A program made the translations under genes and the position numbers. A stretch of 62,446 nucleotides of DNA, the filler included, from Hausera hauseri (lineage: Eukaryota): the NCBI GenBank assembly GCA_046269625.1. It is 12 parts of 12 records of this genome, joined end to end, with 100 filler letters (N's around TTAATTAATTAA, not from the genome) between each part and the next. Parts side by side here need not be neighbours in the genome. Positions count along the whole stretch, not along the records: positions 28,000 to 32,836 come from JBJURY010418477.1; 11 more parts are not named here. One strand, written 5' to 3'. The notes beneath the pieces were generated by a model, which did not search any database, was not told where the DNA came from, and saw only the letters and a list, made by a program, of their open reading frames with translations. How positions within the stretch are numbered: the first letter of the stretch is position 1; the number at the start of each line of letters is the position of its first letter. Below, piece after piece: positions 5,298 to 57,658 of this stretch.

Positions 5298-5770
5298 TTA
5301 ACCGATTTGGTACTTGGACTCACAAGAATATGCAGGTCCATCGTTATACGTTACCTGACAAGCGGAACGATGGATCTTTGACGCACACGGAGTACATGTC
5401 ATATAATTATTCTGCCAAATACCCTGTGGACCGGGATCACGACGGCCACAAAACTGGCAAATCACACTATTTTGACATTTCCAACTTCCTTTTGGTACTT
5501 CGTTTAGGGGTGGATCCAAACAAAATGTATAATAACTAATGTCAGAATCGTCACGCAACAGCAGGAGATTTTTCTCGGCAGGTTGACCACATCCTTCACA
5601 GACTGTACAATCTAAACAACGTCAGGCTTTTTTAATGTTATCTTTGGACAGTTTGTTGATTGCAGCACAGTATGAATGGTAACATTGACCACACTGAACA
5701 CCACAAAACAACAGTGCATCGACACCGTACGACTTGCTCGAAACACACATGTCTTTATCCAATGCAAGAA
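5298..5770 (-). pseudogene. KMT2C/KMT2D (MLL3/4, Lpt-like) tandem PHD-finger fragment
   Basis: QCGQCYHSYC...A*RCLDCTVCEGCG...DISYYTFCLDPPLNEVPKGSWKC...WQNNYMTCTPCAS; stop codon and lost Cys/His ligands. Confidence 0.9.
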
Positions 5771-5965
5771 TCGCCGGCGCGACAAATAACAACGGTTGTA
5801 GGATGTTCGTCTTTTTTGCATTTTTACATTTTACCTTAGACTCCGGTAGCGACGGTCGTCAATCCATTGCATAAATTTCTACGTTGAAAAATTACAATCA
5901 ATGATGCAGAAACTACGAGTTCTGCATGTCGGACACTGATAATTTTCGTTAATTGTGCTGGCTGC

Positions 5966-7000
5966 TTATGTCATATATTTATTTGGTCCAGTAGTTTGGA
6001 AAAAATTGAATGGCAAAAATGGAAATCCAGCCCTAGTCATTTCCAACTGATAAATCATACCATTGTAACTTCTCACGGCACAGCCATTATCAATTATTAC
6101 GATTCCAGGAGTAGTAAAATTTCTATCAATGGAAACCGAACATGTTTGGAGAATGAAAATGGTATTTGGTTTTGACAGACTCCATTCAACACCAACAAAT
6201 GCCGTTTGATCTGAATTAAGTGCAAATGGATTATTCATTTTACTTTGGGAATTGCTATCAGTGTAGAAATCCATTGTCGAATTTGTTGGACTTAAATTAT
6301 AACTAGGACAAGGCGGAAGAGAACCAAGTCGATCGTTTTGTGTATTGTTGAAAGGGGCAACCGTTTTACAGCTTACTTGGATTGTTTTTGACGGTACAAG
6401 ACTCAAGCCATCCTTTACGTAGAAGCGATTTAAAAACAGCTATATAGTATACATGTACCCATATTCTGCATAATTGGGGTGCTACAAATAAAATCAAGCA
6501 CAGTATAAAGAGGGTACGTTGAATTACTTTATATAATTTCTGTTGAACTATATTCTGGACTAATTGATACAAGACTTGAATTAATATATGGAACTGTATA
6601 AAGATGCCAATAAATACCCATCGATATATTTGTGCAAATAGCGGTCGGCGCAGTTTCTTCAATTTTTTGCTCCGCTGCATTTTATCCAAACCAGATAATT
6701 CGTACATCGATTGACCGGACTAATTATTTGGCAGTTTGCACCATTTCAAGAGAGTTTCACCGATGTATTGCTTTTAGGATAACCGTTTGGTACAATTAAC
6801 TGTGGATTCTTTACATTTCTGTACGTCAGTCCACAATAATGTGCTGCGATCGATTTCGTTAACGAAGAATTATAGTTACAAACATGGATAAAATATCTGT
6901 TATATATATCACCCAAATCATTTCCAATAACAACGCAACTCACTGAATATTCTTTAATAACTGATATTTCTAGTAATCCCAGTTTTGTGTGGAATTTTAA
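5966..7000 (-). pseudogene. SRCR-like plus zona pellucida (ZP) domain protein fragment
   Basis: ZP-C pattern (AFVGVEW...FILQTCSV...IIDNGC...FPFLPFNF). Upstream ZP-N-like and Cys-rich SRCR-like pieces are broken by stops and frameshifts. Confidence 0.6.
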
Positions 7001-7279
7001 ATCCAATATTTGGACATACTCAAGCTTAATTTGCTTCGTTAAGTAGATCATCATCCAAATGTGTAAACAATGTAAATTAACATTATTTTTAATATTTGAT
7101 TGAATATTAGTTAAAATGTTACGTAAGAAACAACTGCGGGGTGCCCCAAGGACAATAACCGAACTCACCAGTATGATTCTGTATCCGGAAGTCCAGCGAA
7201 TCGATGCCTTTAATACCAAAGAATCTGCTCTGAAATACTTCTGACACCAATAGTTGTTTGTGAGAAGTACATGTGTATA

Positions 7280-7550
7280 GGTCGCTGGTCCTTCGAAGTA
7301 AATAAAGAAATTTAAATGCTCAAAAATTTTAACCAAGTTTTGGTGGTGCAATGAAACTTCACTTTCACTGATCTTCTGGGTTTTTTTTTATTGTATTTAG
7401 ACTCACTCGTTTACTATCGCGTTCCGCTGCTACTCTTACCACCAATAGCTTGTACATCTTGTATTCATTTCTTACAGTCAGCAGTGTGTCATCAGCAAAC
7501 CTAATGTTGTTTATATCGTGTCCCCCTAATAATATTTCTGGTGTGTCTCA
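7280..7550 (-). mobile_element. RTE-clade LINE reverse transcriptase fragment
   Basis: ILLGGHDINNIRFADDTLL...LNTIKK matches the RTE RT core (INNLRYADDT). Confidence 0.8.
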
Positions 7551-8713
7551 TTACCATTTCGTTATGTATGAAGCTTATGTAAAAATCATCGGGTCTCTGT
7601 GGTCACGAGTCGACCACGCGGCGAGCTAGATACGAGGTTCAAATGCCGGTGGAAGCTTTGGGATTTTCTTTCTTCTGGATCTTCTAGTAAAAACTTCCTT
7701 AGAGTTTATTTTGTATTATTTATTTTTAGTAGCCGATTACCATTCGTTAATGCGACACTGTTTATCGTGAGTTAAAATAGCAATGCTTATCACGCGTTCA
7801 ATTAATACAGCTTATCATTATTTCAGGCATGCGCAAACATGGGCACTGAAAATACGACCTACTCTGTTTCTACTCGTTCGTTGTTGCTTTGTGTTGCCTA
7901 CACTAGTTGTCTTGTTCTGTGATCCCGTGTTAGAGAGAGAGTTGGGCATTTCGTACAAGAGACACATTTACAGTTATAGAGTGTTTCAAGCGAACGACAG
8001 AAGAAGAATGTGCATATTACAAAATGGAAATGGTGAATTACAGCTGAAGGGTGTTAGGAGATTAAAAATTATGTTCCTTTTAAGTTACGGTAAATTATCC
8101 CCCCACCCAAATCACGTTCCGAAACAACATTTTAAAGCAATATTTCTTGTTTCTTCTTCAAGTGGCGCCCACCCCCTCCCAGCGAGGAGAGAAAACTCTC
8201 TGTATAAAGTCTGTATATAGAACTATATTATTTTTCAGCTGAATTTTCGCTGATAAGTGTCTTAATTTCAACCTGCTTGTTCATGGTGCCACGAAAGAGT
8301 TGTCTCGCTGTTTATCCATAGAATCCTCTGACAGTGGATCTGTCGTGCTCTGAAATTTGTGGAGTCAATTTCGGAAACTGTGTATTTCTATAAATAGTGT
8401 CCATGAAATGTAATTAATAAAATGTCTTTTTCTTCTTCTTCTCCAGTCGTCCAATACGATAGGGAAAGTTAGTAGGAGCCGTCCTAGGACATTTCTCCCT
8501 GCTTGAGTGCAGGAAAAACCGGCATAACCCTGGCTGTTCCTAACGGTAAGCAAGGAGTCCACGAGGTCTACCTCAAGGTAGGAATGTCTTTACTAGAATG
8601 TCTTGAAAATGCTNNNNNNNNNNNNNNNNNNNNNNNNNNNNNNNNNNNNNNNNNNNNTTAATTAATTAANNNNNNNNNNNNNNNNNNNNNNNNNNNNNNN
8701 NNNNNNNNNNNNN

Positions 8714-9361
8714 AACGGTCAAATAATCAACTCGACGAAGGAGAACACGGTTTTCATGTACAACATGACTTGGAAATAAATGGTATTAGACAGACTCCGC
8801 GTTTCGTCCCATATCTCAACTCTAACAATATAATTTTATTTTAAAAGTACACAATAAGAATAATAACCTTTGACGATATAATCGTCAGTCAGCAACAAAT
8901 AATGAAATTAATACAATCGAGATTTTCTCCAATACTGTTCGTACGTGCAATCAATACTCGTTTTCCTCTAAATTCTAATGGAATTTTCTTCGACTTTCCT
9001 GTTGTTACTTCTCTCTCAACTAAATCGACGTTTATATAGCTGTTGATAGCCGGAGTGGTGTGCTAGGAATTTTTCGTAATTAATTTCCATCCATTTCTCT
9101 GCTAATTTTATCCAGTAATCTCAGCCTTCAGCCTACAATTATTGATTTACAAAATAATTTCGGTATATCCAGCGAACAGTTGTTGGCGTATTTTGATGAT
9201 TAAGAAAAAGAAAACTGATTAACTAATTCTGAATGGTAACGATTTTTCTTTTCAAATTTCAGTGCTAAACATTTAGTTCCAGTTTCACTTTCGATTTCGC
9301 TTTTCGGTTTCGTTTTGATTTACATATGTACAATTTACGGTTTACAGCCCTTTCTACAACA
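8714..9361 (-). mobile_element. 3' LTR of an LTR retroelement, preceded by a polypurine tract at 9362-9372
   Basis: Minus strand GGGAGGAGAAA followed directly by TGTTGTAG; TATATAAA near 9031-9038 and AATAAA near 8836-8841 in LTR order. Confidence 0.65.
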
Positions 9362-12300
9362 TTTCTCCTCCCTGAGCGGCACTCTCGGATATGCCTATTG
9401 CGTCAGAAGAGTTGCTGCGTAAACGATTCATTCTCCCACGTATGTCCGCTTCCGAATCTGACTCATCTCGCGGGGGTCGCAAGTCAAAGCGGTATGCTGT
9501 AGTAGGCTTTTGAGTGAATATTTCCACTATCTTCTTACTCTCTCCATTAGAGAAATAACGCAACCTCGTAGCTTCAGCCCTATATACTAGGCAGGTCATC
9601 TTCCCATTTTCAGGGTCCACGTTTCTAAGCAATAATGACAGTAATTATGGGTGCAGTTCTTATTATCTAACACCACAAATCCTTTGTATAGGTTTGCGTC
9701 ACAAACGAGGCATTCTTCTTTTCACCCCATCTATATCTATAAGATTTTCGTCAATTTCAATTCGTTCGAACACGAGTCCCTTCTTGTCTTGGTATAAATA
9801 TCCGCATAGCCGTTTCTATTTAGGGTCTATTGAGCTCTTTTGGGGTCATCCGATAAGATAACCAATGTCCATACAACGATTTCTTGTTAGTCCAAATCTG
9901 GTGTCCCCATCTTCTTGTATTGCCTCTTTAACTGCACTCTGACTTGGGTGTCTACCGGAATAGTTAGTCGTTGGGTTTCGTTTCTTGATTGAAATATCGG
10001 GGCTAAATATCTGCCAATTGTTGCGTCTTTTCAGGAATATCCATTTCCACTCACAATTCTCCCAGGAACAGTAGAGACGTAAAATGTCGCTTCTTTAATT
10101 TTGCCATTGCTATAATATTCGGCCATGACGAGTATTCAGGTGTATTCTTCAACCTGACCGAATTCGCTTACTATGATAGGGGTTGCTTCTTTCCAGTTTC
10201 TTCGAAGGACATTTACTTCTGTTTTGGGTGGCTTATAGCTGAAGGTCTTTGTTCTTTGTTCGTTGGATTTTTCGGATCCCTGTTCTTTTGGTTTATCCTT
10301 TGGATTTATCACTTCTTCTTTAATAATTGGTATAAAACTTCTAGTAGACGGTTTCATTTCTTCGACTTGACCCTTACTGGTCTTATTTTTCTTTCTACTG
10401 ATATATTCGAAGAATGAGGGTTTCGACTTTTTCCCTCTCTGAGGCTCTCCGATGTTCGATTTTCATTTTCCCGTTGTCTTTTTGGAGGAGGGTCGGCCTT
10501 CGGTTAGACTGCAATTGGTGGATGGTGTGGTGTTCACATTCACCCAATCGATGATTTGTACAAAAAACATTTCTTGTTTTAATAAAGAAACTACTGAAAA
10601 ATTTCGCTCAAGATTTGAAATTGCGGCAGCTTAATTCAAAAAAGACTGTTGATTGGTGACTTAACAATTTTGCATTATTCTACTGTCGCAATTTTATCAG
10701 TTTTTTAAGTCGATTCAGTTCCTATTTCATTCGCCGTTCTGCACTCTAATTGATAGTTTTTATTTCGAGTTCCAGATTTGTTCCAGATAAAAGTGATCAC
10801 TAATTGATAGTCTTCGTCTGGCCGCTATTCAATTACTGTAATTGACTTGGTGTTATTTTCTAATTGATTTCAATTTGAACGTTATTTCTGTAAATGTCGT
10901 CATGAATAATTTCAAAATTAACTGTTTGTCAAGTTTATATTTTCTTTAATTACTAATTCCTTCTAGACGAAGTACAACACGCGGATTTCAATTTACTTTC
11001 TATTGATGCTGGATGTATTATTGTAATCGTTTTATTTTCTGACGAATTCTGGCTATCCATGGATACCGTACAATAAATGGACAAATAGTAATTGAAAACT
11101 TCGGAAATAACAGATGGGGTTTTCTGGTTATTTCCATTTGATCCTTTCTGTTCGAACAAGTTGACTGAGCTGTTTTGAACGGTTATTTGGAGATTATTAT
11201 GTCCTTGGATTTCAGTCTGTCTATACGAGGGGTATTCGCTAAATCCTTTTCGAAATTTCTGTATCAAGATTTTTGGGTTACTGTCGGACATTACATTCTG
11301 TGTAGAGTTTCTCGGCTTCCACTTTTGTTCCCAGCGTAGCGAGATATAAATATCTGTTACAAATCTGATTTTCTGACTCGCTGATATCAATTTGGGAAAT
11401 CTAAATGGTTCACAATTCATAGCTTTTAACATCATCTTAAACCGTGATTCACGAGACGCTGAAGGAAGTAGACACCCCCTTTTCTCATCAGGGTACGTTT
11501 TGTTTGAACTACGACTATCGGATTGCGACTCACTTCACGAATTTCGGCTATATATTTCTATCGGATTCCTAATCTTTCTAGCATTTCGTGTACTTTAAAT
11601 CCGGTTATAACATATCCGTACAAGCAATGGCTTATGTCTTCTTGAATCTCTAGAAAATCTTTCCACTTTTCGAGTTGTAGTTTTGTGATTCCGATAACGT
11701 CGGGAAATGTATCTTTCACCTTCATCCTAGGTGCAATTATTTTGTTTATAATTTCTTCTCCATTTATACTTCGGATAGAGACTTCGATTGGGATGAACCA
11801 TCCATCATCCTTTTCTCCATAGTTTACGGCTAAAATTCGAGTATTCCTGCCATCTGGAACTAGCCTGAAAGCTTCTCCATTCTGTTCTATCTCGTCTTCT
11901 ATGGGGCTTCTGTATACATAATATTGATGGTAGCGGTCTCATCACTTCTCATCACAAGCTTAGTCGGTAGTTCAGCAATTCTAAACTCTAAAGCGTAGTC
12001 TATGAGACTAGCGCAATATAACTCATATGTACTAAATTTTCCTTGTTGACCTCTTTTGGTACTCTAGGGCTGCCCTACGATCCTGTACTGTATTTCTCCA
12101 TCAGCGATATGTATGTACATTTGCTGGTGTGTCAGTTCGTATGGGATCATATCTCTCAACAGATATGCTCGTGCATCTTTTGGACTTCGCATTGCGTATA
12201 ATCGAACTATCCGATTTTCTTCTAAGCCCCATTTCAGTCCATTTGGTATTTTGCTTTCTTGATCGATTTCTAAACAAGTTTGGTTTTTCAATCTTTCTCC

Positions 12301-12414
12301 TATTTGACGATATAAGCTTTTAGATGGAGACTTAAGGACTGTTACATTCTGCTATAGGAAGTCATCAATGTCGTATCTGAGACTTTGTGCTGGATTCTTC
12401 GCCTCTTCGGCCAT
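9354..12414 (-). pseudogene. Long degenerate accessory ORF with a C-terminal C3HC4 RING finger, interrupted by the 10526-11112 insertion
   Basis: ATG at 12414; intronless frame with stops and frameshifts; ECLVC-x15-CTHNYCHYCLETW...TCLVYR at about 9575-9712. Confidence 0.6.
10526..11112 (-). mobile_element. 587-bp TG...CA insertion (solo LTR-like cargo unit) with 5-bp TSD GATGG
   Basis: GATGG at 10521-10525 and 11113-11117; minus strand starts TGTTATT and ends TGTGAACACCACA; removal rejoins the host ORF (QKTPS/TNCS). Confidence 0.85.
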
Positions 12415-12519
12415 ACTTACTCTGCTAAGATAAAAATAAAGGTCAATCCTAAGACAGATCATCGTTTTGAAACAAAACATTTTCTCTGTCTGATGATAGG
12501 ATAACCCGATATGTAGTTT

Positions 12520-13310
12520 TCAGATTATGCTGTCATAGAGTCCGTCTTGGTGCCCTTTTTCCCATTTATCTCCCTTCCGATTTTTACAGCGCTTATTACA
12601 ATTTTTGGAAACTAAAAGAATCGTCGCTGTTATTATGATAAGAACGAAAATTGTCAAACTGAATATAGCTATTATCGGTAAGTTATTTGGTTCAGTAGAA
12701 CTTTTCGTGGTAAACACATTTTGCGTACTAAGATCTCTATACTGCATTGCTTCGATCTTACTATCTAGAGTCCGCACTGTATAAGTCTTAGGGTTCTTAC
12801 CCTTTGCAGTAATTCTGACTATATAATCATATTGCGGCCGTAATGACCTTCACTCAGCCTCCTGACTATTCTTTCTCAGGATCACAACTTGGTTGGTGTG
12901 CAGGGTGCGACATTCAATTTTGATGTCCCGATTTAACGTTTCCTCAGCGTAAAATCGAATTTTACCGTTTTTTGCCAAAATCTTAATTGGTATGCTTCCT
13001 GGCATTTCGTCCGAAGTGACGATCGTAGTAGCGAGAGTCGTTCTTGAAGCAGTGGACGGTTTTCTTGTAGTGGTTGGGAATGAAAGTTTCCATATTCCGT
13101 TTTTCGGACGATATCCTCTTAAATATTTTCTTTGTTCTCCGGGATACGTATTGTACAAGTCGAATTGTAACTGATAATCCTGTCCTAGTTGTATTACACA
13201 ACACGTAGTAGGTCGGCGTCTGGCTAGATAACAATATTCGGGAGTAGGGATCGAAGCATTCAATGGTATAAATCGGAAAGATATTTGTCTGTATCCAGTC
13301 AGCTCTATTT
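12520..13310 (-). pseudogene. Type I membrane protein (Thr-rich linker, FN3-like motif, TM helix, short tail) with one internal TGA
   Basis: ORFs 12850-13263 and 12520-12777 are in frame; LRPQYDYIVRITA resembles the FN3 LxPxxxYxVxVxA motif; TM segment IIAIFSLTIFVLIIITATILLV. Confidence 0.6.
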
Positions 13311-21954: not shown

Positions 21955-22735
21955 TTTACTTTCCTTTCTCTCTATGCGCAGTAAATTCAATGTCTGTTCT
22001 TCAGATAAGTAATCTTGAGTTACGAAATCGTGCGAAAGCAGTATTTCCGCAGTTGGTCGTCGCCGCTCATTTTTTGATCAGTGCATATTTAAGGAGGAAG
22101 TGAAATCTTGGTGACCACGATTCTTTTTTCTGAAGTTTTAGTGGTGAATACGTTCTCTGGGCCAAAATCTGCAAGGCATACATAGGATGTAAATCAAATA
22201 ATGGTGGCTGTAGTTCTGCATATTCAATAGCAGTAATACCAACTGCCCAGACGTCACAGCGTTCGTCGTATCTACTTTATCTATTGTTCACTGCAGCAAC
22301 TTTCGGTGTCCTCCAGTACGGAGTTCCTATTAACATGTTTCTTTTGGCATAAGTGGAAGACAATTTCGCTGCGATTCAAACGTCAGCTATTTTCACTTTT
22401 CCATTATCAGTAAGAGGGATATTAGCACCTTTCATATCTCTATAAATACGATTCTTTTTGAGCATATACTCAAGACCTCTGAGTGTTTCTCTAGAAATAA
22501 ATGCAATCGTATTTTTTCAATGGACCGTAGGAGATTGAGATAAATATCTTGTATTGACTGACCACCGCAAAACTCCATACAAATCCAAAGTTTTGAATTT
22601 TGCAAATAACTTCCAAAAAACTGTACAATATTTTTATGCGTACATTCTTTTAATGTATGAATTTCTTGGCAAATAACTGTAACGTCATCACGAAGATCGA
22701 TTTTCATTATTTTGATGGCAACATGCAGATTGGTT
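21955..22735 (-). pseudogene. MAP4K (GCK-I/Ste20, MAP4K3/5-like) kinase domain
   Basis: VAIK, KLWICMEFCGG, YRDMKGAN, DFG changed to DV*, GTPYW, CDVWAVGITAIEYAELQPPLFDLHP; frameshifts and stops. Confidence 0.92.
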
Positions 22736-23384
22736 TTATCAAAGTACCAGCAACTTACGGTTTCTTAATGTGACAATGATTGTTATCAACGACACGAAAA
22801 AAACATCATGGGTTGATTTAAGATGATCGCATAACCTCTGACAGAATGGTAGGTCTTCTAATTTCGTTACCAAATTTAACACGCCGAAAATTGGTTTTTG
22901 TGATTGGGATCCGCGATTCGAACAAATAGTATCCAATTCATGCCAAGGAAGATGGTTTGAAAGTTTATTCTCATCGCTAACCGTACTGACAACGTTTATC
23001 AAACAGTTTGAATCATTTTCTTCAGTTACTGGTGGCAAATATGTCGGAAGCAATGACCGTATCGATTGCTTGGAAATGATAATTATGAACCAAATGGGGT
23101 ACAACTAATCCCACAATTGACATCGATTGAGCTAATAGAATTTCCAATACCAGATTCGAAAGGACAGCTGATATGAGTATTACAAGAATCGTGCGAAGCC
23201 TTGGAATATGACCTAGAGTTACAAAAAGAGTTAAAGTCTATATCTGATTTGATGTGTAGTCTGAAATTTAAGCTACTTGTAAATGAAGACCTGTTGATAA
23301 ACTTGACACAAGAAATTTCCTCAGAATTATCATTAGTCGTATCCGTTCGCCTTATAGCTTAAATTTTAGAGGCGGAAGATCTGG

Positions 23385-23462
23385 GCCCGACGCGGCGGCA
23401 ACGGACGCCCGGCCGTGTCCAACCAGATGGGCCAGAGGGAGCCGGGCGCTGTGGGCACCACA
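23385..23462 (+). mobile_element. GC-rich LTR right end of the CsRn1-like family, directly abutting a Tc1 transposase
   Basis: 66/78 ungapped identity to the reverse complement of 56126-56203; ends TGTGGGCACCACA. Confidence 0.85.
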
Positions 23463-25945: not shown

Positions 25946-26179
25946 TATTTTTGAAGTCCGCGGCCGAAAAATATACTAAAAAATAAAACTTTTATAAATG
26001 AATATAGTAAAATTACCAGTTTTCCTTTCTTTTACAATTATGATGTAAATTTCGACATTTCTACCTTTCAAATAAAATAAATCCAAAAAATAAAGAATAA
26101 ATACAATTTTAGCATTATGTCAGGAGGAATTGATATGACAACTGTAGTGCCCCGAACTCGGGCGCCACCACAATCCAAC

Positions 26180-27666: not shown

Positions 27667-28018
27667 GTAAGCTCCGTTTCCACAATATCTCATCATTTGG
27701 GACCTGATTTTCATCTTGACTCAGTTTATCTGATGTTCTGATATTTGCATGTAAAGCAGACAAAAAGCAAAAACGGGAGAATCCTGTAAGGAGCCGGATA
27801 CTTTTCACAGCACGGCGAATGTCATACTTTTAAGGAATATGTTGGAGCTAAAAAAGAGCAAGTTTGGAATAAAGCCAAACCGGACACATCTACATATTGN
27901 NNNNNNNNNNNNNNNNNNNNNNNNNNNNNNNNNNNNNNNNNNNTTAATTAATTAANNNNNNNNNNNNNNNNNNNNNNNNNNNNNNNNNNNNNNNNNNNNT
28001 GAAGATAACAAACATCAT

Positions 28019-31000
28019 TTGACTGACTTCACATCAAAGTCAAAGAAGATCATCTTTAATGAACATAAGTCAGTTGCAGCAGCACAGCCTGCAGTACTAC
28101 AGCCAGATGAAGGATTAAAACGTGCATCAGGACCATTATGCGCAGCAGCATCAGGTGCAGCAGCATCAGGCACGGCCACATCAGATGCACCGGCTCCATC
28201 AAAAAGCCAAGGACAGCGGCCGGTTAATGCTGCAGCATTACACAGAAAAGTCTACATTTATGTCATTGATGCAACTGGTCAAACAACCCTCAAGGAGTTC
28301 CTGGAGTACGCAAAGGACAACATAGCTCAGCTCAACGCCATTAAGGCTAATATAAAACTTGAGGCCACTTACGTCAATGTTGATGGTAAAGAGTCCAAAA
28401 GGGTCTTCAAGACCAGAAATAGGCAGAAACAATTTTTGAAGCCACCAATATAATAAAATGGCTGCATGAAGAGCATGCGAAGGTGATTATTGACGCCGAT
28501 GAGAACCAGAGTAAGAAGAGCGGATGGACTCTGAGAAACGTTAAGAGCTTGCTTGTGTATGTGCACAGATTCTCGCACTATGCGAGGTAGTGTACATGTT
28601 CAGCTCCCTGATTGGATCGCTAATAAAAAAGCATGTGACAATGTCCATAATAACGACAACATGTGTTTCATGTATGCCATTCTATAAAAACCCGTACCGG
28701 ATCAACATAATGCTTTACGAGTTTTGCGATATAAGGATGTGCAGCACAACTATGAATTCCAATGTATCACATTCCCTCCATCCTTAGATGAAATTAGGAA
28801 GTTCAGTCAAATCGACAACATATAAACCAAGATCTTTTGATTGGATGAGGAAGATAAATTCTATCCCCTGCAGATATGATAATGAATTGGAAGATCATAG
28901 GGATCTGCTCCTACTTGACGATGGAGAAAAGAAACATTACGTATGGATAAGGAATTTTCAACGTCTAGTAAGATCCCAAATTACTAATCATCATGGAAAA
29001 ATTGAGATCTGTAAGCGATGCCTGTCTCATTTTAGCGGTGATACTGCAGTGGACAGGCTCGCAGAGCACAAGATTTACTGCAGCAACAATTACTGTATCA
29101 GGCCAGAATTTCCCAAGGAGGACTATATTGAATTTAAGGAGTTCTAGAAGAAGCTCAAGGTCCCAATTTTCGTCTATTGCGACTTTGAAGCTATTCTCAG
29201 ACCCGTTCGGAGTTGCAGTCCTAATCCCCAACATAGCAGCACAACGGCATATCAATATCATGAGCTCTCATCATATTGCATGTATGCCAAAGGACTGGAC
29301 AGTGAACCATTTCTATTCAGGGGCCAGGCGCAGCAGCTCATTTCATGAAACGACTTAAAGATTGTGATTAGGTCTATTCATGGTCTTACCCAGTGAAGAA
29401 TTCAAATCTGTATTTTGCTTAATGATATCTGAGTCCAATCCGAAAAAATCGACATTCGAATTAGCCTGAAAGTTGTTAAACGTTATCGGTTTAACTGGAG
29501 TATCATGACGACTCGTATGTTGATATGATACAGTTGAAAAGATCTGAGATTTAAGCGAATTGATAGAATTCGTAGTAGATAAACGAGATTCCGAAAGATT
29601 ATCTTGGGTTGAATTAACTACAAATGCACCGTGAGTGCTCTGAATTGGGATCGGTGATTTCTACAATCGGTGGAGTTGAAAGTTCATCACAAACATTGTT
29701 GGAATTTGCGCTTATATCAGGTTGAGAAACCTCTGATCAATTCGGATACGAATGACGTATGACTTTGTGGCTGATTTAGAACATCATAGAAGTATTTTCT
29801 CTAGGTGTCGAAGACACATCAACTATCGCTTGGTTATCAGTTTGAGAATAATTTACGTCACCATGAGGCTCATACTGACTGGACCTTTCAGTTAAGCGAT
29901 TATTACATGTCTGAATATTAGTATGAGAAAAACCATATCTTTCCGAACGACTTTCTGGATTACAACAATTCATTAAATTTTTTTCTTTGGTATAAAACTT
30001 ATTCACTTAACAAAAATCCGACTTTTCTCTGGCTAATATATTCTCTTTTTTGAACTGTTTGAAGTACATTAATTTTTCTTTGGTTGTTAGATCGATTCCA
30101 GTTAATCATGTATAATCGGCAATTTCAGTTTCGGCAACTTTGTAATCATAGTTAATATGTTTCTTCAAGAATAATTCGTCCATTTATTTTACCTTCATCC
30201 AGCAATAGCAAGAACTCGTAGGAAAATAAAACTATTATAATAGTAAATCCAACACCAATTAAAAAAATCGAACTCTGCATAAAGTCTTATTTATTTAAAC
30301 AATCAGTTTTTGTTTTTTACAAATTCCACATGCAGATCACCAATTGGGTGAATGTGGGCGCCACAAAGATATGTCTCATAGGATTGGAGATATGCTGCAG
30401 CAGCATAAGGATACAATGAGCATGTCGATGCAGCAAGAAGAAAACAGCATGTTACTTGTGCTTTACTAAGGAGAATTATAAAGTCAGGGATCACTGCCAA
30501 TTTACAGGCACATATCAAGGTGCGGCATGCAACAACTGCAGTTTACGTTGCAAAACATGTACATATGTGCCTGTAGTGTTCCATAATCTCGGTTGCTATG
30601 ATTCCCATTTCATTGTTCGGAAACTGGGCAGCACTGAAGGAAACATTGATGTGATCCATAATAGTGATAAGTACATCACCTTTACGAAGCATGTTGGGAA
30701 AATCAGACTACGCTTCGTAGACAGTTTCCGTTTTATGTCGTCTTCACTTGACAGTTTAGTGAAGAACCTCCCTGCATAAGAACTCAAGAAGACGAAGTGG
30801 TTCTTCCCTATCTGGTCAAGAGGAAAGGCGTGTTTCCGTATGACTATATAACATCATGGGAAACAATGAATGAGACCTCTTTGCTGGCCAAGAAGGACTT
30901 TTGCAATATCCTCTCTGATTGCAATATCAGTGATATGTACTACCAGCATGCACAGAACGTCTGACATACATTTCAATGCCGAACATTAGGCGAATACAGC

Positions 31001-32360
31001 GACATATATCTCAAGACTGACGTGCTGTTGCTGGCGGATGTCTTTGAGAGTTTCAGGGATCTTACGATAAACAGCTATGCATTGGATCCGGCTCACTTCT
31101 TTACAGCTCCAGGGATGAGTTGGGCAGTTATGCTAAGATATACCGGTATTAGGGTTCAGATCATAAAGGATTACGACATGATCCTCATGATTGAGAGAGG
31201 TAGTAGAGGCAGAATATTCCAGGCCATTCACCGGTATAGCGAGGCCAAAAACAAGTATAGGGCCCAGTATGATCCATCCATGGAATCCTCATATATATCA
31301 TACCTGGACGCCATCAACCTATATGGATTGGCAATGAGCGCCCCATTGCCATATGATAACTTCAAATGGGTCGAGAATCCTGAAAACATCCATATACTGG
31401 ACCTAGATCCCACTGGCGATACGGGATACATAGCGGAGGTGGATATGGAATATCCGGCTTCTCTCCACACAAGGCATTAACAGCTGCCTTTCCTCCCTGA
31501 GAGCAAGCCACTGCCCCATAAAAAGCATAGAAAGCTGGTCTGCCACCTGGCTAGTAGGGCGAGGTATATATTGCACTACATAAATCTCCAGTAGGCGGTT
31601 AGAAATGGACTCCGCATTACTAAGATCCATGGAGCCCTGCAGTTCAGCCAGTCAAACTGGCTGTAGCCCTACATAGATCTCAATACTAAGCTGCGGACGA
31701 ATGCAAAGAACGATTTTGAGAAGGACCAGTCCAAGCTTTACAACAACAGCCTTTTTGGCAAGACCATGGAGAATATTCGGAACAGGATCAACATCGAACT
31801 GGCCTCTGTGTAGAAGCGGTCAAAGAAGTTTATTGGCAAGCTCAACTTCCACAGCAGCATCACATATGCGGAGAACTTGCTCAGCATCCACATTAGGGTA
31901 CCCACATTCAAGTCCATAAAACTGATGTACATGGATACTGATAGTTTCATCTATCAGATCCATACAGAGGACAATTATGAGGACTTTGCTTAGTTGGCTC
32001 AACATATGGTTACGTCTGACTATCTGAAGGAGTATCCCAACTATGCAATTACTAACAAAAAGGTCCTTGGGAAATCCGAAGACAGGTGAATGGAGCAATC
32101 ATCTCGAGATTTATGGCTCTTAGGTCCAAAATGTATGCCCTTGATGTATGTGGTCAAGTAACGAAGCGGGCTAAAGGGGTTCAAAGGGCGACCTTAACCA
32201 AGAAGATTGGCTTCGATGACTGTGAGAGTTCTGCATGAGCAGACTCATCATATCAGAGATGCGAAGGATCCAGTCTAGAAAGTCTAGATTGAATGGATGA
32301 CAAAGGCAGATCATTGGTGATGGAATATGCACACTACCTCACGGACATGTTGCATTAATG
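28019..32360 (+). mobile_element. Degenerate Polinton/adintovirus-type protein-primed PolB, interrupted by the 29363-30365 insertion
   Basis: [85 protein letters not shown]. Confidence 0.92.
29363..30365 (+). mobile_element. 1003-bp TG...CA insertion (solo LTR-like cargo unit) with 5-bp TSD AAGAT and an antisense host-like ORF relic
   Basis: AAGAT at 29358-29362 and 30366-30370; starts TGTGATT, ends TGTGGGCGCCACA; removal restores FMKRLKD/MSHRIG. Confidence 0.9.
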
Positions 32361-32480
32361 TAAATATCTTTGTTATGACGTATTGTTTTTTGTATTAATA
32401 AATCTTATAAAAATATCGTGTTGTCGTCTTGATCAAGTAATGCGGGATATAGGATAAGGCCAACTAATTTCAGAACACAT

Positions 32481-32746
32481 TTATTTTGTAACAACATAAC
32501 TTTGGCATAACGCTAAACCCTTTTTATAAACACAATATAAACCATGTTCACGATAAATACATGTAATGTTCTTTGGTATAGATACCAATTTGCCACATTC
32601 ATATGCACATATTCGTAATTCTGGAAATGTAATGTTAAATATCTTTCGCCCATCAGCATGATCCTTGACATAGAACGTGGCCTCACATATATCACACATA
32701 GTGTCTGTGAGGAGGAATTTAAACGAATATTAAAGTTTAAATTCAA
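32481..32746 (-). pseudogene. Small Cys-rich ORF convergent with pPolB; possible element accessory gene
   Basis: CDIC...CAYECG...C..C; frameshifted, tail-to-tail with PolB. Confidence 0.3.
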
Positions 32747-35030
32747 TCAAAGTTAAATCAATAAACAGCCAATATAAAATCAGGAAATTCAAAAAAGGAT
32801 GAAAAGAAGAATCATTTAATGAGTGAAGGAGATAATNNNNNNNNNNNNNNNNNNNNNNNNNNNNNNNNNNNNNNNNNNNNTTAATTAATTAANNNNNNNN
32901 NNNNNNNNNNNNNNNNNNNNNNNNNNNNNNNNNNNNTAAATTGTTAATAAGTCAATAATAAAAATATTTCAAAATTTAAATTACTTTAATCAGAGTTACA
33001 AATGCCGTACGTCAGTATTTGCAAGCTTAGATTCAGGAAGAATATTTACTTCATTACGTTATGGAAGTTAATCAGAAAACTCTATAAACGAATTTCGAAT
33101 GGTAATAGTGGTATATTCAAAATGGTCACTGATAGATGTATATTTCAGAATCTTTTACGTTCAGATGTTGGAGACAGAAAATTGGATTTAATTTGTGATC
33201 AACCGATAAACTTAAACATTATATTACGGTGCACTCATAGTGATGATACAAATATTGCTCGTGAAAATGTTGAAGAGTTAATTGGAATTATAAAACAAAT
33301 TGATGCTATTTCGTTGTCAAAATCAGGTGAGAAGTTTCAAATGAATAGTATACAGATCAGCAATTATTGGAATTTATAGATATTAACTGAACAACAGAAC
33401 TTACGTTATAAGGCAGATATGCGGATATTTCCGAGATTACTACATCAGTTTGAATCAATCTTTGGAAGTAATATTGTTGGGATTGATCAAATAATTTTTG
33501 ATACTTCTATCGTAATTTATCGTAATTGTTCCTTTAATTGGTTTCTTTTTAATTGGTGTCGTGCCCTGAGGGTAATTTGATTTAATTGTTTTTTTCGGCA
33601 TGTATAAATTATGTGGCTTGAAGAATCAACTCACAGTTTTTTTTTATTTACGGTTTCTGTTACTGGTTTTGTTTCTGTGACTAGAATGTACACGTCCCCA
33701 TGAATATACTTTGGAAGAGTTTCGAAGTTTTATTTTGTTGTTCCTTTAAGGGATAGTCTGACCAGGTCCTGATACTACGAGTGGGTAAATTTGTGCATTT
33801 TTGTTATAGTGTTGTAATTGTCATAATCTTTCCTTTTCTATTTTTTTTTGACGTTCATCGTGGCATTGGGTGTATAAAATTGGCTGGCTGTTAAAATCGT
33901 TTGTTTGTTAGTGAGTAATCTGAAGACCATTCAGTGAACCGGCTTTAGTTGCTCACTTGTGCTTGATAAATTGGTAAGAAAGTGAGTATACGAACCTTGG
34001 TAAACTCGTAACATTTTATCCCAGAGTAAAACCCCGATTTGGTTTATTGGTAGCTTTGTGCGATAATTACTATTCAAAATCCGGTGCACGAAAGACATCT
34101 CAGATCATCTGAGTGCGCCCCTTTTGAAAGATTGTAAGTTCAATTGTGGCGTTCTCGGGTCGACGATTTAGTCTTAACGATCTTCTTGACTGAATAGAAG
34201 TTGTTGGTTGAACAAGAACTCACACCCCTTTGTCCCTACTCGTTTTCATTATTTTTAAGCTAAAAAAAGACGATAACACATTATAAATTCAAATTGCACA
34301 GCAATAGACGTGCCAAACACTAACCTAACACCCCAACACATGTATTATATTCATTGAAAAAATTGACAACGATATCCGAATGAAATCCTTTACGCTCTTT
34401 GTTCAAGTCAAGTTGAATGCCCAGTGATTCAAAGATTTGCAACTTTTTACATTAAAAAGTTTTTTGAAGATTCTTGTCAAAATAAGCTAAATCAGAAAGC
34501 AAAATTATTTGCATATGATCGGGCAAGTACGGAATATATGACGGTCATGTACGAAGTGTACTACGAGAAAGAATATTCTAAATAAACTTTTAGGGACAGT
34601 GTTAAACAAAATCCAAATAAGACAAATCCAGGATAGTCACTTCCGATTTTGTCAATAAATACAGAGAGAATGAAAGTAGACGAAAGGAGATAGTCTCTAT
34701 GTCGGCCAACATTTCAAGAAGTAAACCATAAGTGTGCTAAACAAAATTTATCTAACAAGGAAGTTGTACTCATTGTTAAATTTGATGGAATATCTATCAG
34801 TCAAAAAGATCATCGTTCTTGAAAGATATGATGTTAACGTTCAACAATCACAGTTTCTCAGTGATATTGAAATGATTAATGAAAGTTACCTATCTATGTC
34901 GAAAGCATCTGTGAAGACAAAATGATCGAATGTCATAACTGAAATCCAACACAAATGCCTGATGTAGTGTTACTATATATAAAATCAATTACATAAATGC
35001 TGAATAAATTATTATAATACTTAATATTTG

Positions 35031-42341: not shown

Positions 42342-43554
42342 ATGGCCTGTTTGAGAATGAAAGTCAAGAAAGTGGCCATACAAAGCAGACTTCCTTTTAA
42401 TATTTTACAGTTAGTATGGCCACCACTAAATTCAACCTTTCGTCACTTTTGCGGCGTAATTGCACTATCAGCAAATGAAAATCCGTTCGAACAAGTGAAA
42501 ATCAGAATGGACGCTATAATGCAACATAAAATGTTTGCATTATTCAAGGAAGAAATTTCAGCTCAAAAATTCCCCCACCTCCATATACTCGTATATGCAC
42601 CTAACCAAATAAGGTTGATATGGTGCAAAACACTACTACAAATGTACTAATACCATTCAGAGAGTCCATATTCGAGGTATACAAGTATTATGACAAAGGA
42701 ACATACGATGGGCATTTGTGTTCCAATACGGTACAGCGCCAATAAATATTTACAAAGATAACACTTCACGAAAGGCTCTGTACTGTCAGTGCGATGAAGC
42801 GCAAAGCTTCAATGAATCACTCGAGATTATGAAGGACGGAGACAGAGCCGAGTATATTACTAGCCATCGTCTCTTAAACCAATACATTCGCAATAAATTT
42901 AAGAGGCCTATAAAACTAAATGAATCGTTCGTATTCACGTTACCAAAAATTGCTTTCCGGCCAGAAGACGGAGTTCATAGCGCAATTCTATTCGGACAAA
43001 GTAATATAGGCAAAACGTTTTGCCCTGAGTCATGGTTCTAATCCAATGATCCTCTATTCGCTCCACGACACCCCTAACGACTGGACAGGGGATTATGACC
43101 TGATTATCTTCGATGATGTTGGATTTAACACCTGATACGCTATTATCCATTGTACAAGTAATAATTTTTTATTTTCATTTTTTTTACTCAAACTTAGGCC
43201 AATCATGAATTTGACAATCGATAAATAAGAGGATTTTACAAGTCTGTCATAATTCCGTCAAGCGTTCCAGTTATTTTTACGTACAACTCGGAAATTAATT
43301 TCTGGCCGCGTAAAATGGACATTACGCAAAAAGAAGCTTGTATTAAAAGATGCCTCATCTACAATTTAGGTATAAATTTTTCACACATTATATACTTATT
43401 TTTTTCAGGCAGCTTTATACTTTACAATTCTCCGAATCTACGAACGAATTTCGTTGCAAAAAATACGGTTGATGTTATGAAATTAGCACAAGACCACAAC
43501 CTTGAACTTTCTACACTAAATATACCACTTCAACCAGTAGATATCGATGAATAA
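42342..43554 (+). pseudogene. CRESS-DNA-virus-type Rep (HUH endonuclease plus SF3 helicase) with small introns, frameshifted
   Basis: PHLHIL (motif II), VYKYYDK (motif III), GQSNIGKT (Walker A), IIFDD (Walker B), IFTYN (motif C); GT-AG introns 43158-43197 and probably 43370-43408. Confidence 0.85.
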
Positions 43555-48199: not shown

Positions 48200-48579
48200 C
48201 CTTCATTTTTATACTACTTTCATGAGTGCCGTTCTACCGACTGCATTTAATTTCAGTGCAATATTCCACGTATTCTTCTGGAATAACGAATTCGTCGTTG
48301 TTAGCCTTCAGAATAACACGGTGATATTTTATCCTCCTACGTATTTAAGTCGATCAAAGAAAGACAATTTATGTCTGTCGTCATGTACACGAATTGAAAA
48401 CGAACCCAACAAAACAATTTTCTCTCTGTCATGTTCAGCAAAACCCGACGGCAGTTCGACGAGTAAATCTACCCTTCACACATCACCCCAACTAAGCTAT
48501 AATAAAATCATCGCACTCAGCATACGATCGTTCNNNNNNNNNNCGACATCTATTTGAAATACCGCCTACAACGTTTTAC

Positions 48580-49050
48580 ATAGGGTCGTTTCCAAATTAC
48601 AACATCGGAGGAATTATTCGAAATAAGAGTGGACAAATAACAGTACAATGATGCATTATTGTTAGCCAAACAATACCAATTAGACAGTGATAGCGTGTTG
48701 CATAAACAATGGCGCAATTCGAGCAAAACAATCGATGATATCCGGAATATACTCGTTAAAATAATGAAGAAAAATTGGATACTGAATAAGTGTTTGAAAC
48801 ATATTCCGGATAGTAATGAGTCATTGCGTTGTCTGTTGAAATTGGGTTTGCAATCGACAGCTTCAAATCAGCTAAATAATGATTGTGTTGTTGTGCCTGA
48901 TGATTTCCGGTTCATTTGTAACGAGTTTGATGATATTCATGCTGGCGTGCAATGTCTTAATGAACTGCCGTTAGTTAAACTGGAAATTATTCGAGTATGA
49001 TTGAAATTATCGCAGTACTTGGATAAATTGGTATTGCATGAGGAAATTAA
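48580..49050 (+). pseudogene. NBAS: NBAS (neuroblastoma-amplified sequence/Sec39-like) fragment; more decayed coding-like sequence continues to about 50450
   Basis: TTSEELF...YNDALLLAKQYQLDSDSVLHKQW...KKNWILNKCLKHIPD...LLKLGLQST; in-frame stops. Confidence 0.8.
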
Positions 49051-50689
49051 ATGCGTAATGAATACGAATACGAATCTTAGTGATATTATTCTCCACGATT
49101 CATTACTCATTGAGTCAAAAAGTCTTACTGCACAATTCTATAATAGCGTCTATAAGAAATGCATTTACTGTTGGGACCAGAAATAAAAAATTGTACTTTT
49201 CTTTCAACTAATATGTTTGACATTTTCACACGGACAGTTAGACACAATTCTGAGTACCATGATAGTCTTGTCGAATACGTTGAATATTAGTACCCTTGAT
49301 TTCTTAAAACTAAGCAGACTGGATAACACTTCCACAAATCTCTGTAGAACGTCACTCATGTTTTGTGATAAAGCTATCAGATACAACAAAATTGGTTTTA
49401 TTCACGTTTTGACTGATGTTATGCAGAATTCGGCGGGATTTGACAAAGGGTGATTTCGGTGTGATGGAACTTCCATCAATTTTCGAATGGTTGAAATTAT
49501 TTTGTACATAACAGCTGATATTCAAAAGTCATTCGTTTTACTGGAGAAATTGGTTTCCGATTTTCAGGACCATTTAAACATTTGTTTTTCCTCCGTTAGT
49601 TCTTTGACCGAGAAGCAACAATATTACGGCTATATCCGAGTTTTGAAGCAGGAAACAAGTCCACACCTCTCATAGTGCGCCATATATTAAGAGTTATATT
49701 TTCGATCCAGTTGCTAAGACTTTATAAAAATATACATCGATTTATGACTCCAGACATTTTGACACCGGCTCACTCTTTTTACAATCAGTTTTGTACTATC
49801 ACCGAATATATTCATTCAGCAGAGTACCAAACTCGTGTGAAATTACTTCATGAATCATTAAGGGACTTTGTATGTCTCCAAAAAATTGGAGATGAAAGTC
49901 GAATGACGCGTATTTTACAAAAACAATTTTTTTTTGAAAAAGGTGATTTTAATGTTCTCTATAAAGATAGACAGAAATTTCGTCAATCAGCAGTTTTAAG
50001 TTGTTTTCACTGTCTTCTAATTGAAGATGAGCATAATATGAAAATCTATCGAAATAAAACAAACGATGTACTCGAGGATCTCATGGCAAAGGTGATTAAA
50101 AAGATTGAAAGCTACAAATCCATTGGTTCGCCGCCTGAAGTGATAGCACGGATGTCAAATGTCGGTATTCGGAAATTTCACTAAAATCCTTTCAATCGAC
50201 AAATGTTAGAACGTTTAGCTGTTTTAAAAGAAATCAGCAAGCCAACAAGTGCCAAAACAGAAGAAAATAATACCGAACTTCGGAAATTAGGAATAATGGC
50301 AGATAGAAAACCGTCACAGATAATGGAGTTCGAAAACACAACGATTTGGCCATTCGCAAATATCACCTGCCAAGAATCTAAAAAACTGTCGGGGAATTTG
50401 TTATCGGCCCTTCTTTTACACTTTGTCATATCATACCAACCAAAGTAGTTCAATCACTACATTCAGTATGATTCAGTATAGTTAATTCAATTAAATGTTA
50501 CAAATTCGGCTGTCTACTTGTTCGACTTATGAACAAGGGACTAGAATCTAAAAAGTTACTTGCTGAACTAGCTAACATACAAAAAAAGAATTGACTTATC
50601 ATTTTTCGAACCAACTGATCGAATGCTCCAGGTCATATCCACATCCACTATTCCGGATACCACTCTGGTTGGGCAGACCAGCCATTACA

Positions 50690-51453
50690 ACGCAGGGATT
50701 TTGGGCGCGCCCGTGTCATATGCACCACATTGCACACCCGACTTATGTGACAACATCGTTTCACTTGTCTTGTTATTCGAAAATAAGCATACACAAACCT
50801 ACTACATTCACAAATCAGCAACAATTGCAAAATTGTCAGGCATGTTACAACGACAAACAACTCTTGCTAATTTTCGCCTTAGTTTTAATGGACTTCTTCC
50901 CCAATAATCCGACATTATAACAAGTTACACCCACTCATCTTCAACACCTATACTGACTGTACACTATTGTCTGTTAGGTAGATCCGATCCAAAAGCCTCA
51001 TCTAACGACCAACAAGAGTGTCGACATTCCTACTATAAGCGTACCGCTAAATTCACCTCTACCTCCATCATCTACTGTAAACCTACCATGCGTAGAATAC
51101 TTTACTGACAAGTAACATTCCAGCCGGACGTTGTTGGACTTCAATGCGGCTTTGTTGAAGCCGAATAATATTGTTGACTTCTTTCTTAAAAAAACAGCTT
51201 GCTTATACTTTTTTCTTCCACAAATAAGTCGCAACTTTCCATCTTGTCGGAAATTTTCCAAAGCAGTGACCCATACAAAAGGCTTTTTAACTCAATTTTA
51301 AAAATCAGAACCATCTCTGGATAACATTATCCACAAAGATTTTAACGACAACATCATAGGCACATTAAAACCCTCAGAATTTCTTCAAACCTCACTAACT
51401 CAGTTGAGTACTCTTGGCGTTAACCAAGCAAACAACGCCGATTTTTACGCGGA
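50690..51453 (+). mobile_element. CsRn1-like gypsy copy C: 5' LTR end (50729), leader and gag start
   Basis: TTGGGCGCGCCCGTGTCATATGCACCACA and the downstream gag region are homologous to copy B. Confidence 0.85.
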
Positions 51454-54500: not shown

Positions 54501-56218
54501 TGGTGCAATATTTTTTGATTTTGTATGATTGATTATACTTTTAATCACACGGTGCTGCTTGCAATAAACTAGTAAGTTGTAGTGCGATAAAAAATCAGAC
54601 CCTAAAATTGATGTTTTAATATCTGCAACAACGAAATTCCATTGAAAGACATAAGAAAAATGTGGCAGGGTGAAAGACATTTCTGTAGCACCAAAAATAC
54701 GTAATGCTTGCCCATTTGCCGTGAAGAGTTTAGTAGACGTACGGAGCATTTTTAGTGAAGTGAAAGATGAAGGTAGTAATGAACCAGCTGCACCTGAATC
54801 GATCATAAATTTAGTGTGGTGCGGAAAAGATGTGAATCCAGAATCCAATAAGAAAACGCTATTGGTAGAAGTACGGCAGTCAAAACAGAAAAGATGGCCT
54901 TTCCAGAATTTTCCTTAGTTTCTGGCGGCTTTAGGCGTTTTCTTTGAATAGATGAATAGGTTGGAGTTTTCTGGGTGTAAAATGTACACCCAAATAAGCA
55001 GCGCTCTACATTGTCTTTAAACCTACTGTGATAGATGCAGACAGTATCGTGTGACTGGAAACGCTGCGTATAGAACTTGCGGCCTATACAGCATTTTTTG
55101 GCATTTTGATCGAATTTTGTGTGATAATAGCACACTATTTTCCTCGAAGGTGACTGGGCGTGCCTAGAGTTTGCAGACGACTGTCTGCTTCGATCTGTTA
55201 TAAACCGACCACGATGCGGTAGATCCAAAGCGTCAATTTTGCTAGAGATGACCGATTTGGCTTGATGTAAGGCTGCATTTTTGGCTTGCAAATTTTGAAT
55301 TTGATAGACTATACTGTTCTCGTTGTTTGATGAGTTTGCTAATTGTAGATGTGTAACTATTGTTCGTGATTGCGCTACTTGCAGAGCTGCAATCGGTTTA
55401 TGTACATTACTGTTGTGAAAAATTTCGTAACTTTTTTCTGCAAGTTGCGCCAGTTTGTCGAGCGACGTAGAATCCTCCACAACAGTAATGAGTGCGAGGA
55501 TTTGGATTGACAAGGATGATAAGAAATAACGTAGAAGAAGATCCGCGTTATTTTATTGGTTTACTCCTAGTGAGTTTAGTTGTGAAAGTGAGGTGCGAAG
55601 AAATTTTCAGGGCTTTTGCTGGCCAAGAGCGTTTTCGTTGAAGTATATTTGTATTATTGTGACTAATGAAGACTCGGTTGATGTAGTTACGGTGTCAAGT
55701 AGTAATTTATATGGGTCAGAATGATTAAAGATGTCAGAAAGATTAGTTATGCCGGATTTTATATTGGGTGGAAGATGGAAAAGTAGACTGTTGGCCTTTT
55801 GAAACAAATCAGTGATTTTATGTGAGGCTAGCCACTTTGCTTGGAAGTCTAACTATGTTCTGCAAGAGTTTGGATTATCGAAGAAAAAGTCTACACATTG
55901 ATATTGTGAGAAAGAAGATGGAGTTGGAGAAATAAAGGTTTTGTTTGGGGATTTTTTATCTCCTCAGAATTGAGGTCAGATCCACCATGAAGTTTAAGAA
56001 TTAGATGTAAAGAGAAATGAAGTATGTGATTGAAAAGAGCATAACAGATCGTCGGGGCGAATAATGAGTCCATTCAGAAATAGAGAAGCCAGAAAGATGG
56101 ACGTCGTTGCATATCGATGTGTATATGTGGTGCTCACAGCGGCCGGCGCCCTCTGGCCCATTCGGTTGGGCACGGCCGGGTTTCCGCTGCCGGCGCGTGG
56201 GACACAGGCAGGCCCCGA
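51554..56218 (-). mobile_element. CsRn1-like gypsy copy A with both LTR junctions and an internal RT/RNase H deletion
   Basis: 5' LTR end GCACCACA at 56126; PPT-like GGGGCGTAC then 3' LTR start TGTGGTGC at 51862; gag CHCC x2, MIDSGA, IN core. Confidence 0.95.
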
Positions 56219-56258
56219 TTTTAATATTTATAATTAATTATAAGTATTAAATAATAAA

Positions 56259-57402
56259 TTGATATTCAAAAATCGTAAAGCAGAGTTCCAGAATAGTGAA
56301 AACAAGGACAACTCAGATAAATGTCTCATCGTTTACCGACTTCATCCGTCATATTCAGATGGAATATTATTAGTCCACATTCTGTGTGCCTCTCTCAGTG
56401 ACGAACAGTGCCCAGTCAAATTGAAAGATCGATTAAAGATTCCTCAGGCAAACTTTTAATGGCATTCGATCACCGTTTATTGGACCAGTCGTTTTCATGC
56501 AAAAATGGCTTTTGACTCGTCGTGACGTGAATATTTTCCATCCATATCCGAAACAGAAAACCTTTTCAAAGCCTATTTCAATGAGTTCATCCGATAAAGT
56601 ATCTATAGAGAATTCTAAGGAATCTAATCAAACAACCAATGAGACATCAAATCAAGGTAACAAAGAACAAAATCCTATGGAATTTAAGAATTCTGTTGAA
56701 GGTGATCGGCCATTTTATTAATGTACTTATCCATTGTCGACGGTTTCTCGAACTAAATGTGTAGCGAGGTCCACAATAACTGAAGTGTCCTTAGCAATGG
56801 TTGCGGGCGCCCTTCGGACTTATCAGCAACATATCGGTGAAGTACCTCATCCCTATGATATTTTATGTTTGATTCCCACTGATTTAACCAAAGAATTTCA
56901 TGGATCCGTATTAAATAGAAATAGTTCTTCAGCAGCCAGTAAAGCCAGTAATCTGAGTAGTATTGGCGAATATTCATCTCATTTGAAAAACAATTATTCA
57001 TTAGTCGACTGTGGTCTACCAACGAACACAGAAGGTATGATTCCTAGACTTTGGGAGGTCAAACAACAAATGGAAGAGTTGAAAAACAGTGCAGACAGCA
57101 TTATTCTTCGTGGATTAACACGTATTCTTTGGAATTTATTTCCAAAAAGTGTTGATCAGCGAATAATGCAAATATATTATAATAAAAATAGTCTTTTAGT
57201 ATCATCCCTGCATGGTCCCGATTACAATTTGAACTTTGGTGATAAAACAATCCATGATATTACGTATTGGTTTCCAACAATTTTTGATGTCTCTTTGGCA
57301 ATATCATGTTTCACATACTCCGATTCCTTTATTTGTTCAGTGTCAGCTGATGCTTCCGAGTTGCCAAAAATTCGTTTAGTTTTAGACTCTATTGTATATC
57401 AG
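56259..57402 (+). pseudogene. Wax-ester synthase/DGAT (WS/DGAT)-like protein fragment
   Basis: RLHPSYSDG (HHxxxDG-like), TITEV...AGALRTY, SSLHGP...FG...YW, ISCFTYSD; one frameshift, one stop; ends at a GT donor. Confidence 0.75.
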
Positions 57403-57658
57403 GTTATACATTTTATTGGTTTGGTGAATTTTTTAATGTTCGGACACTTTGTATAATTGTCTTTTAAATTTGAAACTTTTGAGCAAAAATACCTTTAATA
57501 TTTGCTTAAAATTATGCAATATGGGCTCTGTAAATGTTAAATCATTTTGCACTTCTTCNNNNNNNNNNNNNNNNNNNNNNNNNNNNNNNNNNNNNNNNNN
57601 NNTTAATTAATTAANNNNNNNNNNNNNNNNNNNNNNNNNNNNNNNNNNNNNNNNNNNN

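Follow-up and report, generated by a model that had tools for sequence, protein, structure and literature searches.

The window analyzed here is a stretch of 62,446 nucleotides made of 12 contigs with N linkers between them, and the insertion under study lies in the contig at positions 28000-32836. In this contig a broken gene of Polinton type (pPolB) is interrupted by a unit of 1003 bp, and the unit carries a decayed reading frame on the minus strand (Table 1). The preliminary description of the locus had reported an exact AAGAT duplication and TG...CA ends. Both are present, and the termini read TGTG...CACA.

Table 1 Features of the 1003-bp unit, of its host gene and of related loci in the window
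Feature	Position	Strand	Remarks
1003-bp TG..CA unit	29363..30365	. (+ favoured)	likely solo LTR
AAGAT target duplication, left copy	29358..29362	+	5 bp
AAGAT target duplication, right copy	30366..30370	+	5 bp; empty-site joint
pPolB relic before the insertion, broken	28500..29362	+	by eye; without Pfam match
pPolB relic after the insertion, broken	30366..31600	+	DNA_pol_B_2
Decayed reading frame, 189 codons, 4 stops	29617..30183	-	without significant homologue
Open 99-codon S/T/N-rich frame to the unit end, stop-free	29364..29660	-	without homologue
Weak likeness to DNAI1 (axonemal dynein intermediate chain 1), residues ~176-230	29827..29985	-	hint only
117-nt AT-rich shared block, with ATG 30183	30164..30278	.	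75% identity, E 2e-17
Conserved GC-rich end, common with unit 10526	30326..30365	.	weakly like pre-gag gypsy ends 56126 and 23462; has hairpin
Second unit, 587 bp, TGTG...TAACA	10526..11112	.	GATGG duplication 10521-10525, 11113-11117
Decayed MAP4K3-like kinase, 145 aa collinear	22031..22764	-	upstream of and antisense to the 23462 end; E 7.8e-50
Copy of the contig 11 gypsy pre-gag end	23360..23462	+	78% over 105 nt, E 4e-21, contig 5
Pre-gag end (..GTGAGCACCACA) of Ty3/gypsy relic	56126..56230	-	putative 3' end of its 5' LTR
WS/DGAT gene piece	56722..57453	+	upstream of and antisense to the 56126 end; WS_DGAT_C, E 1e-18

Ends and a 5-bp duplication taken alone are weak evidence of an insertion, because chance alone supplies a partner within 100-1100 nt to 288 of 3451 TG starts and to 3 of 230 TGTG starts. 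The decisive support is an empty-site joint. In six contigs of the public run X1, position 29357 is joined to 30366, and the 1008 nt that are skipped equal the unit plus one copy of the duplication (1003 + 5). Five further joints across the unit are each found in one or two contigs of this run, which was the one matching run in the public run search (share 0.24; no RNA run was among the matches listed). The preliminary description had suggested confirming the empty site in other PolB copies, and the six contigs supply it: as they were placed on the window at 80% likeness, they are probably paralogous PolB copies rather than an orthologous empty allele. Together with the ends and the duplication, the joints bear out the integrase-type insertion that had been proposed.

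The pPolB relic matches DNA_pol_B_2 at E 1.9e-6 and 0.0026, and its codon phase is identical on either side of the AAGAT duplication. The claim that excision restores the PolB frame thus stands with respect to phase, but a minimum of four further stops and three changes of frame (by eye) would remain between 28972 and 31600, on both sides of the insertion. Given these stops and frame changes, the gene is dead whatever the insertion did. We conclude that the 1003-bp unit is a real, clean insertion into a dead Polinton-type gene.

None of the six frames of the unit matched a retroelement domain, in agreement with the preliminary description, and the unit has neither direct nor long inverted terminal repeats. 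The two ends of this unit (TGTGA / TGTGG) and the two of a second one in the window all fit TGTNR, the pattern given for Gypsy LTRs in an excerpt of PMC2836005. Such ends would also suit a non-autonomous DNA transposon of the Ginger/TDD type with a captured gene piece, and the same excerpt attributes 5-bp duplications to TDD-4 and TDD-5. It also gives terminal inverted repeats of 40-270 bp for Ginger, whereas the ends of the unit match over 4 nt only. Membership in Ginger1 or Ginger2 was rejected for want of such repeats, and we regard a transposon of this type as highly unlikely.

The second unit (10526-11112) sits in phase within an interrupted intron-less frame. The two units have in common their last ~35-40 nt and the 117-nt block, giving a shared end region of ~200 nt. 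The second unit is without the 800-nt relic, and ~390 other nucleotides separate its two shared blocks. A pattern built from the two copies of the end matches 2 places in the window and none in 100 shuffles. For the other ends of the two units, 354-485 of 1000 shuffles do as well, and only one end is conserved beyond 7 nt. When viral and metagenome contigs were scanned for the pattern, the resulting 29 and 7 loci resembled neither unit beyond 19-25 nt (chance level), and a two-copy profile of the 117-nt block detected no third copy in these loci or in the window. The terminal hairpin to which the preliminary description had drawn attention is not significant (z -1.58; an equally good fold in 10 of 200 shuffles) and is missing from the second unit.

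The second unit lies in a row of intron-less genes on one strand (9100-13308, minus) with no Pfam or PDB match. This row includes a type-I membrane protein gene at 12523-13308 and a gene of ~300 codons at 11560-12414, both on the minus strand, and the frame struck by the second unit holds a RING-like motif, by eye, near 9600-9700 (minus). The membrane protein gene was considered as an env of the second unit, an idea dropped once 11112-11117 proved to hold the end of that unit and its duplication. A likeness between contig 9 (45759-45922) and the second unit was not used (63%, many gaps, AT-rich DNA).

The shared block changes the interpretation of the start codon. The preliminary description had taken ATG 30183 for a host-like gene start preceded by its upstream DNA. 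The second unit does not bear this out, as the ATG and the 95 nt before it lie in the block that is 75% identical between the two duplication-flanked units. Because a second mobile unit has this block, the supposed upstream non-coding DNA and the start codon are probably element sequence and not a host promoter; this is the simplest reading of the alignment, with a shared early capture as the alternative. In the second unit the shared ATG is followed, three codons on, by two stops, and the unit ends ~35 nt later. We rejected the block as coding, since no synonymous bias was detected in any of the 6 frames (6 observed, a value attained in 613 of 1000 random placements). AATAAA occurs on both strands of the block and is kept in both units.

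The minus-strand frame described from ATG 30183 does exist, with 4 stops in 189 codons and then 99 open codons, but its start is probably not that of a host gene. Over its ~800 nt the relic has 4 stops and one frame change, and 7 of 500 dinucleotide shuffles were as open (p ~0.014, for a segment start picked after the ATG had been seen). Searches of a collection of 5.8 billion proteins gave 104 and 404 candidates, none of which reached E<=0.01, and a further search of this collection gave 1 candidate, without a homologue. The single match in a library of 1.84 billion proteins, P0004 (E 8e-12), is a spurious repeat protein and was rejected because its score is the sum of 11 weak repeat matches. 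Pfam searches with the reading frames of the unit returned only a SprA-related match at E 0.1 and DUF7789 at E 0.004, each below its cut-off, and the two Rfam matches (E 0.11 and 0.99) are far below gathering scores. Related-locus scans of viral contigs returned 0 loci; 3 of 10 candidates passed tblastn in one scan and 0 of 11 in the other.

In the PDB the relic is best matched, along ~53 residues, by two chains of DNAI1 at E 0.031 and 0.012, the latter from one of 4 PDB searches over the two units. No PDB match was found for the relic outside these ~50 DNAI1-like residues. In contrast, another host relic in the window, the MAP4K3-like one, scores E 7.8e-50. Derivation of the frame from DNAI1 is possible but doubtful. 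The relic is probably a piece from the middle of a gene, with ATG 30183 belonging to the LTR sequence.

The window contains other elements with which the unit can be compared. Gag-pol relics of the Ty3/gypsy type are present in contigs 8, 11 and 12 and a gag front in contig 10, with a gag that is of the CHCC type by eye. In contig 11, a GC-rich piece of 105 nt ending in CACCACA precedes gag at 56126, and a purine tract followed by TGTGGTG is found at 51862. The homology of the contig 5 copy stops exactly at CACCACA, so that the pre-gag end has the behaviour of a terminus. In both units the conserved end resembles the pre-gag ends at 56126 and 23462 over ~13 nt (1, 14, 27 and 31 of 1000 shuffles as good in four comparisons, uncorrected and among 44 run). 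When compared with the post-PPT head at 51862, 307 and 414 of 1000 shuffles were as good. The other end of the unit matches no known end in the window, and neither a tRNA-Trp nor a canonical primer site follows the pre-gag ends. We disregarded a partner at 21632 for a 4-bp duplication at the 23462 end, as chance would be expected to provide one.

At 45955, a junction starting with TGTAA interrupts a gypsy pol immediately downstream of its RNase H part and has no duplication partner within its contig. A 30-nt piece, TGTGG...CTACA, at 26143-26172 (minus) has two gypsy-like ends and no flanking duplication.

Pieces of host genes lie behind the pre-gag ends. The MAP4K3-like and WS/DGAT pieces are antisense to theirs, and a KNTC1 piece in contig 10 is in sense orientation before its end (E 9e-5, under the Pfam cut-off). 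Between 22031 and 23462 the MAP4K3-like relic, apparently intron-less, is accompanied by further coding relics behind the 105-nt gypsy end, which at 23462 abuts a piece of a Tc1 transposase. The KNTC1-like frame, long and decayed, extends from 48200 to 50729 and directly precedes, in the same orientation, a ..GCACCACA end and the gag front. These host relics make host capture into an LTR plausible. For the unit itself such a capture is plausible by analogy: the cargo seen in it by the preliminary description would have counterparts in three other contigs of the window, but protein searches returned no parent gene.

The order of parts is the same at the unit and at the 56126 and 23462 ends: a conserved end, an AT-rich stretch and an antisense frame leading away. 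This common layout tentatively favours, by analogy, reading the unit as an LTR on the plus strand with the relic in its variable part, although AATAAA is present on both strands and no canonical primer site is found downstream of the pre-gag ends.

Other relics in the window are of different kinds. The host gene pieces suggest an animal source, and one of them, a piece of NDUFS1, has the Drosophila chain as its best match. A broken Rep/SF3-helicase-like relic at 42600-43400 (plus) with Walker A, B and C-like motifs resembles, by eye, the Rep of CRESS-DNA viruses and has no Pfam match. Decayed PHD-finger coding pieces (PHD E 5e-6, KMT2C-like by eye) are spread over 4233-8613 (minus). A weak long inverted repeat in contig 5 (19953-20465) resembles a near-palindrome of ~49 nt in contig 7 (34986-35073).

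Run X1 also informs on the interior of the unit. Its summed depth, which is no measure of copy number, is 82-906 inside the unit, while most of the bins that flank it have about 30,000-390,000. Each of the 18 listed variant sites inside the unit is covered by 2-16 contigs of the run. Based on contig coverage and depth, the interior is repeated in run X1, more so at the left end, and depth is higher in the distal part than at the conserved end. The preliminary description had stated that its proposal would give way if the interior were a conserved high-copy LTR with no cellular parent gene. The results go halfway in that direction, as the interior is repeated and the end with the ATG is common to a second mobile unit.

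We favour, at a probability of roughly 0.55, the reading that the unit is the solo LTR of a Ty3/gypsy-type retrotransposon with a decayed, probably host-derived coding fragment. The steps that we infer are as follows. Reverse transcriptase would have jumped to a cellular mRNA as its template, so that part of this mRNA came to lie in the variable portion of the LTR, beside the conserved end; according to excerpts of PMC5131818, LTR elements of animals are known to capture sequence by template switching. The LTR with its passenger would then have been copied to both ends of the element and would have spread with it. Insertion of one full element into the pPolB gene by integrase would have made the AAGAT duplication, recombination between the LTRs would have removed gag-pol and left a single LTR, and the frame would have decayed afterwards. 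No complete element flanked on both sides by this LTR was seen. The uneven depth of the unit (82-906) is not expected from a uniform LTR family and counts against a solo LTR with a host fragment.

The same unit could be an ordinary solo LTR without a cellular parent, in which the frame would be an accessory or gag-leading ORF of the element reaching into the LTR, or a stop-poor stretch that arose by chance. Plant Retand elements are reported to have antisense extra ORFs (PMC11963269). The absence of homologues for the relic in protein and Pfam searches fits this explanation, as do the repeated interior, the ATG context common to the second unit and an openness that reaches only p ~0.014. It is set against three gypsy-linked contigs that hold recognisable host relics at the matching place, and against the second unit, with two stops three codons past the ATG and a block without synonymous bias. 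We consider it the less probable account, though one that deserves weight.

Conservation of a single end suggests a different possibility, namely a self-standing short DNA cassette bounded on one side by a fixed end for integrase and on the other by a cryptic CA in captured sequence, which would have been integrated directly in trans and would never have been half of a full element. The frame that runs off the 29363 end stop-free and the greater depth of the distal part in run X1 are consistent with such a cassette, as is the conservation between units, beyond 7 nt, of one end alone. However, the supposedly variable ends of the two units both read TGT.ATT (6 of 7 nt alike), as short att sites would, no other copy sharing both of its ends was seen, and no replication route is known for a cassette of this kind. 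LTRs are, moreover, most variable in U3 in the part of PMC3601003 that treats them. Since a solo LTR explains the anatomy of the unit, an independently moving cassette is not needed, and we judge it unlikely. Quite unlikely, too, is a broader form of the idea. In this form the lineage would keep one fixed end-piece while the rest of the terminal repeat would consist of changing scraps of host mRNA, here perhaps from a dynein intermediate chain, and cassettes would integrate alone at a cryptic CA in the cargo, needing neither paired LTRs nor an internal region.

If the LTR body of these elements is an exchangeable passenger from host mRNA, each of their solo LTRs deposits a piece of a gene in the genome. 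This would be a route of exon scattering unlike internal retrocopies in layout, and LTR-finding software would misread it. The unit adds a complete example flanked by a target duplication and backed by an empty site, together with a sister unit whose middle differs and a family that makes 5-bp duplications. Its passenger is the least identifiable in the window, so that, taken alone, the unit differs little from an ordinary solo LTR nested in a Polinton-type gene that is dead. The layout with cargo in an LTR is probably a variation on a known capture process, with a host origin unproven for this unit.

Among known systems, Cassandra TRIMs reportedly carry a 5S-rRNA-like sequence inside their LTRs (10.1101/2023.07.14.548913, PMC10886601), and the likeness to the unit lies in a host-derived sequence held in a terminal repeat. 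Cassandra has a fixed small-RNA piece with a promoter function in a two-LTR miniature, whereas the unit would hold changing protein-coding scraps, and the TRIM/Cassandra arrangement of two short direct terminal repeats around a spacer is not found in it. A search of literature titles found none on protein-coding cargo inside animal LTRs, which is weak evidence of absence. The CsRn1 clade (PwRn1, AgCR) is approached by the CHCC-type gag, judged by eye, of the gypsy relics in the window and by pre-gag ends like that of the unit over ~13 nt. Its duplications are of 4 bp and its LTRs of a few hundred bp in the excerpted PMC2582038, as against 5 bp and 1003 bp here, and membership was rejected on the 5-bp duplication of both units.

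Solo LTRs of animal Metaviridae (Ty3/gypsy) are similar in their TG..CA ends fitting TGTNR, target duplication, AATAAA, lack of gag-pol and one better conserved end (excerpts of PMC3601003 and PMC2836005). The unit differs from them in the decayed frame of ~800 nt inside it and in that the parent element was not seen. In LTR-mediated retroposition, as far as excerpts of Tan et al. 2016 (PMC5131818) describe it, an LTR element likewise carries a truncated coding piece, for which an origin by template switching and further copying are proposed. The unit, which is without direct terminal repeats, does not have the two-LTR layout of such retrocopies. In the excerpts of Tan et al. 2016 (PMC5131818) the mRNA piece replaces the internal ORFs between two LTRs, whereas here the piece would lie inside one LTR-like unit.
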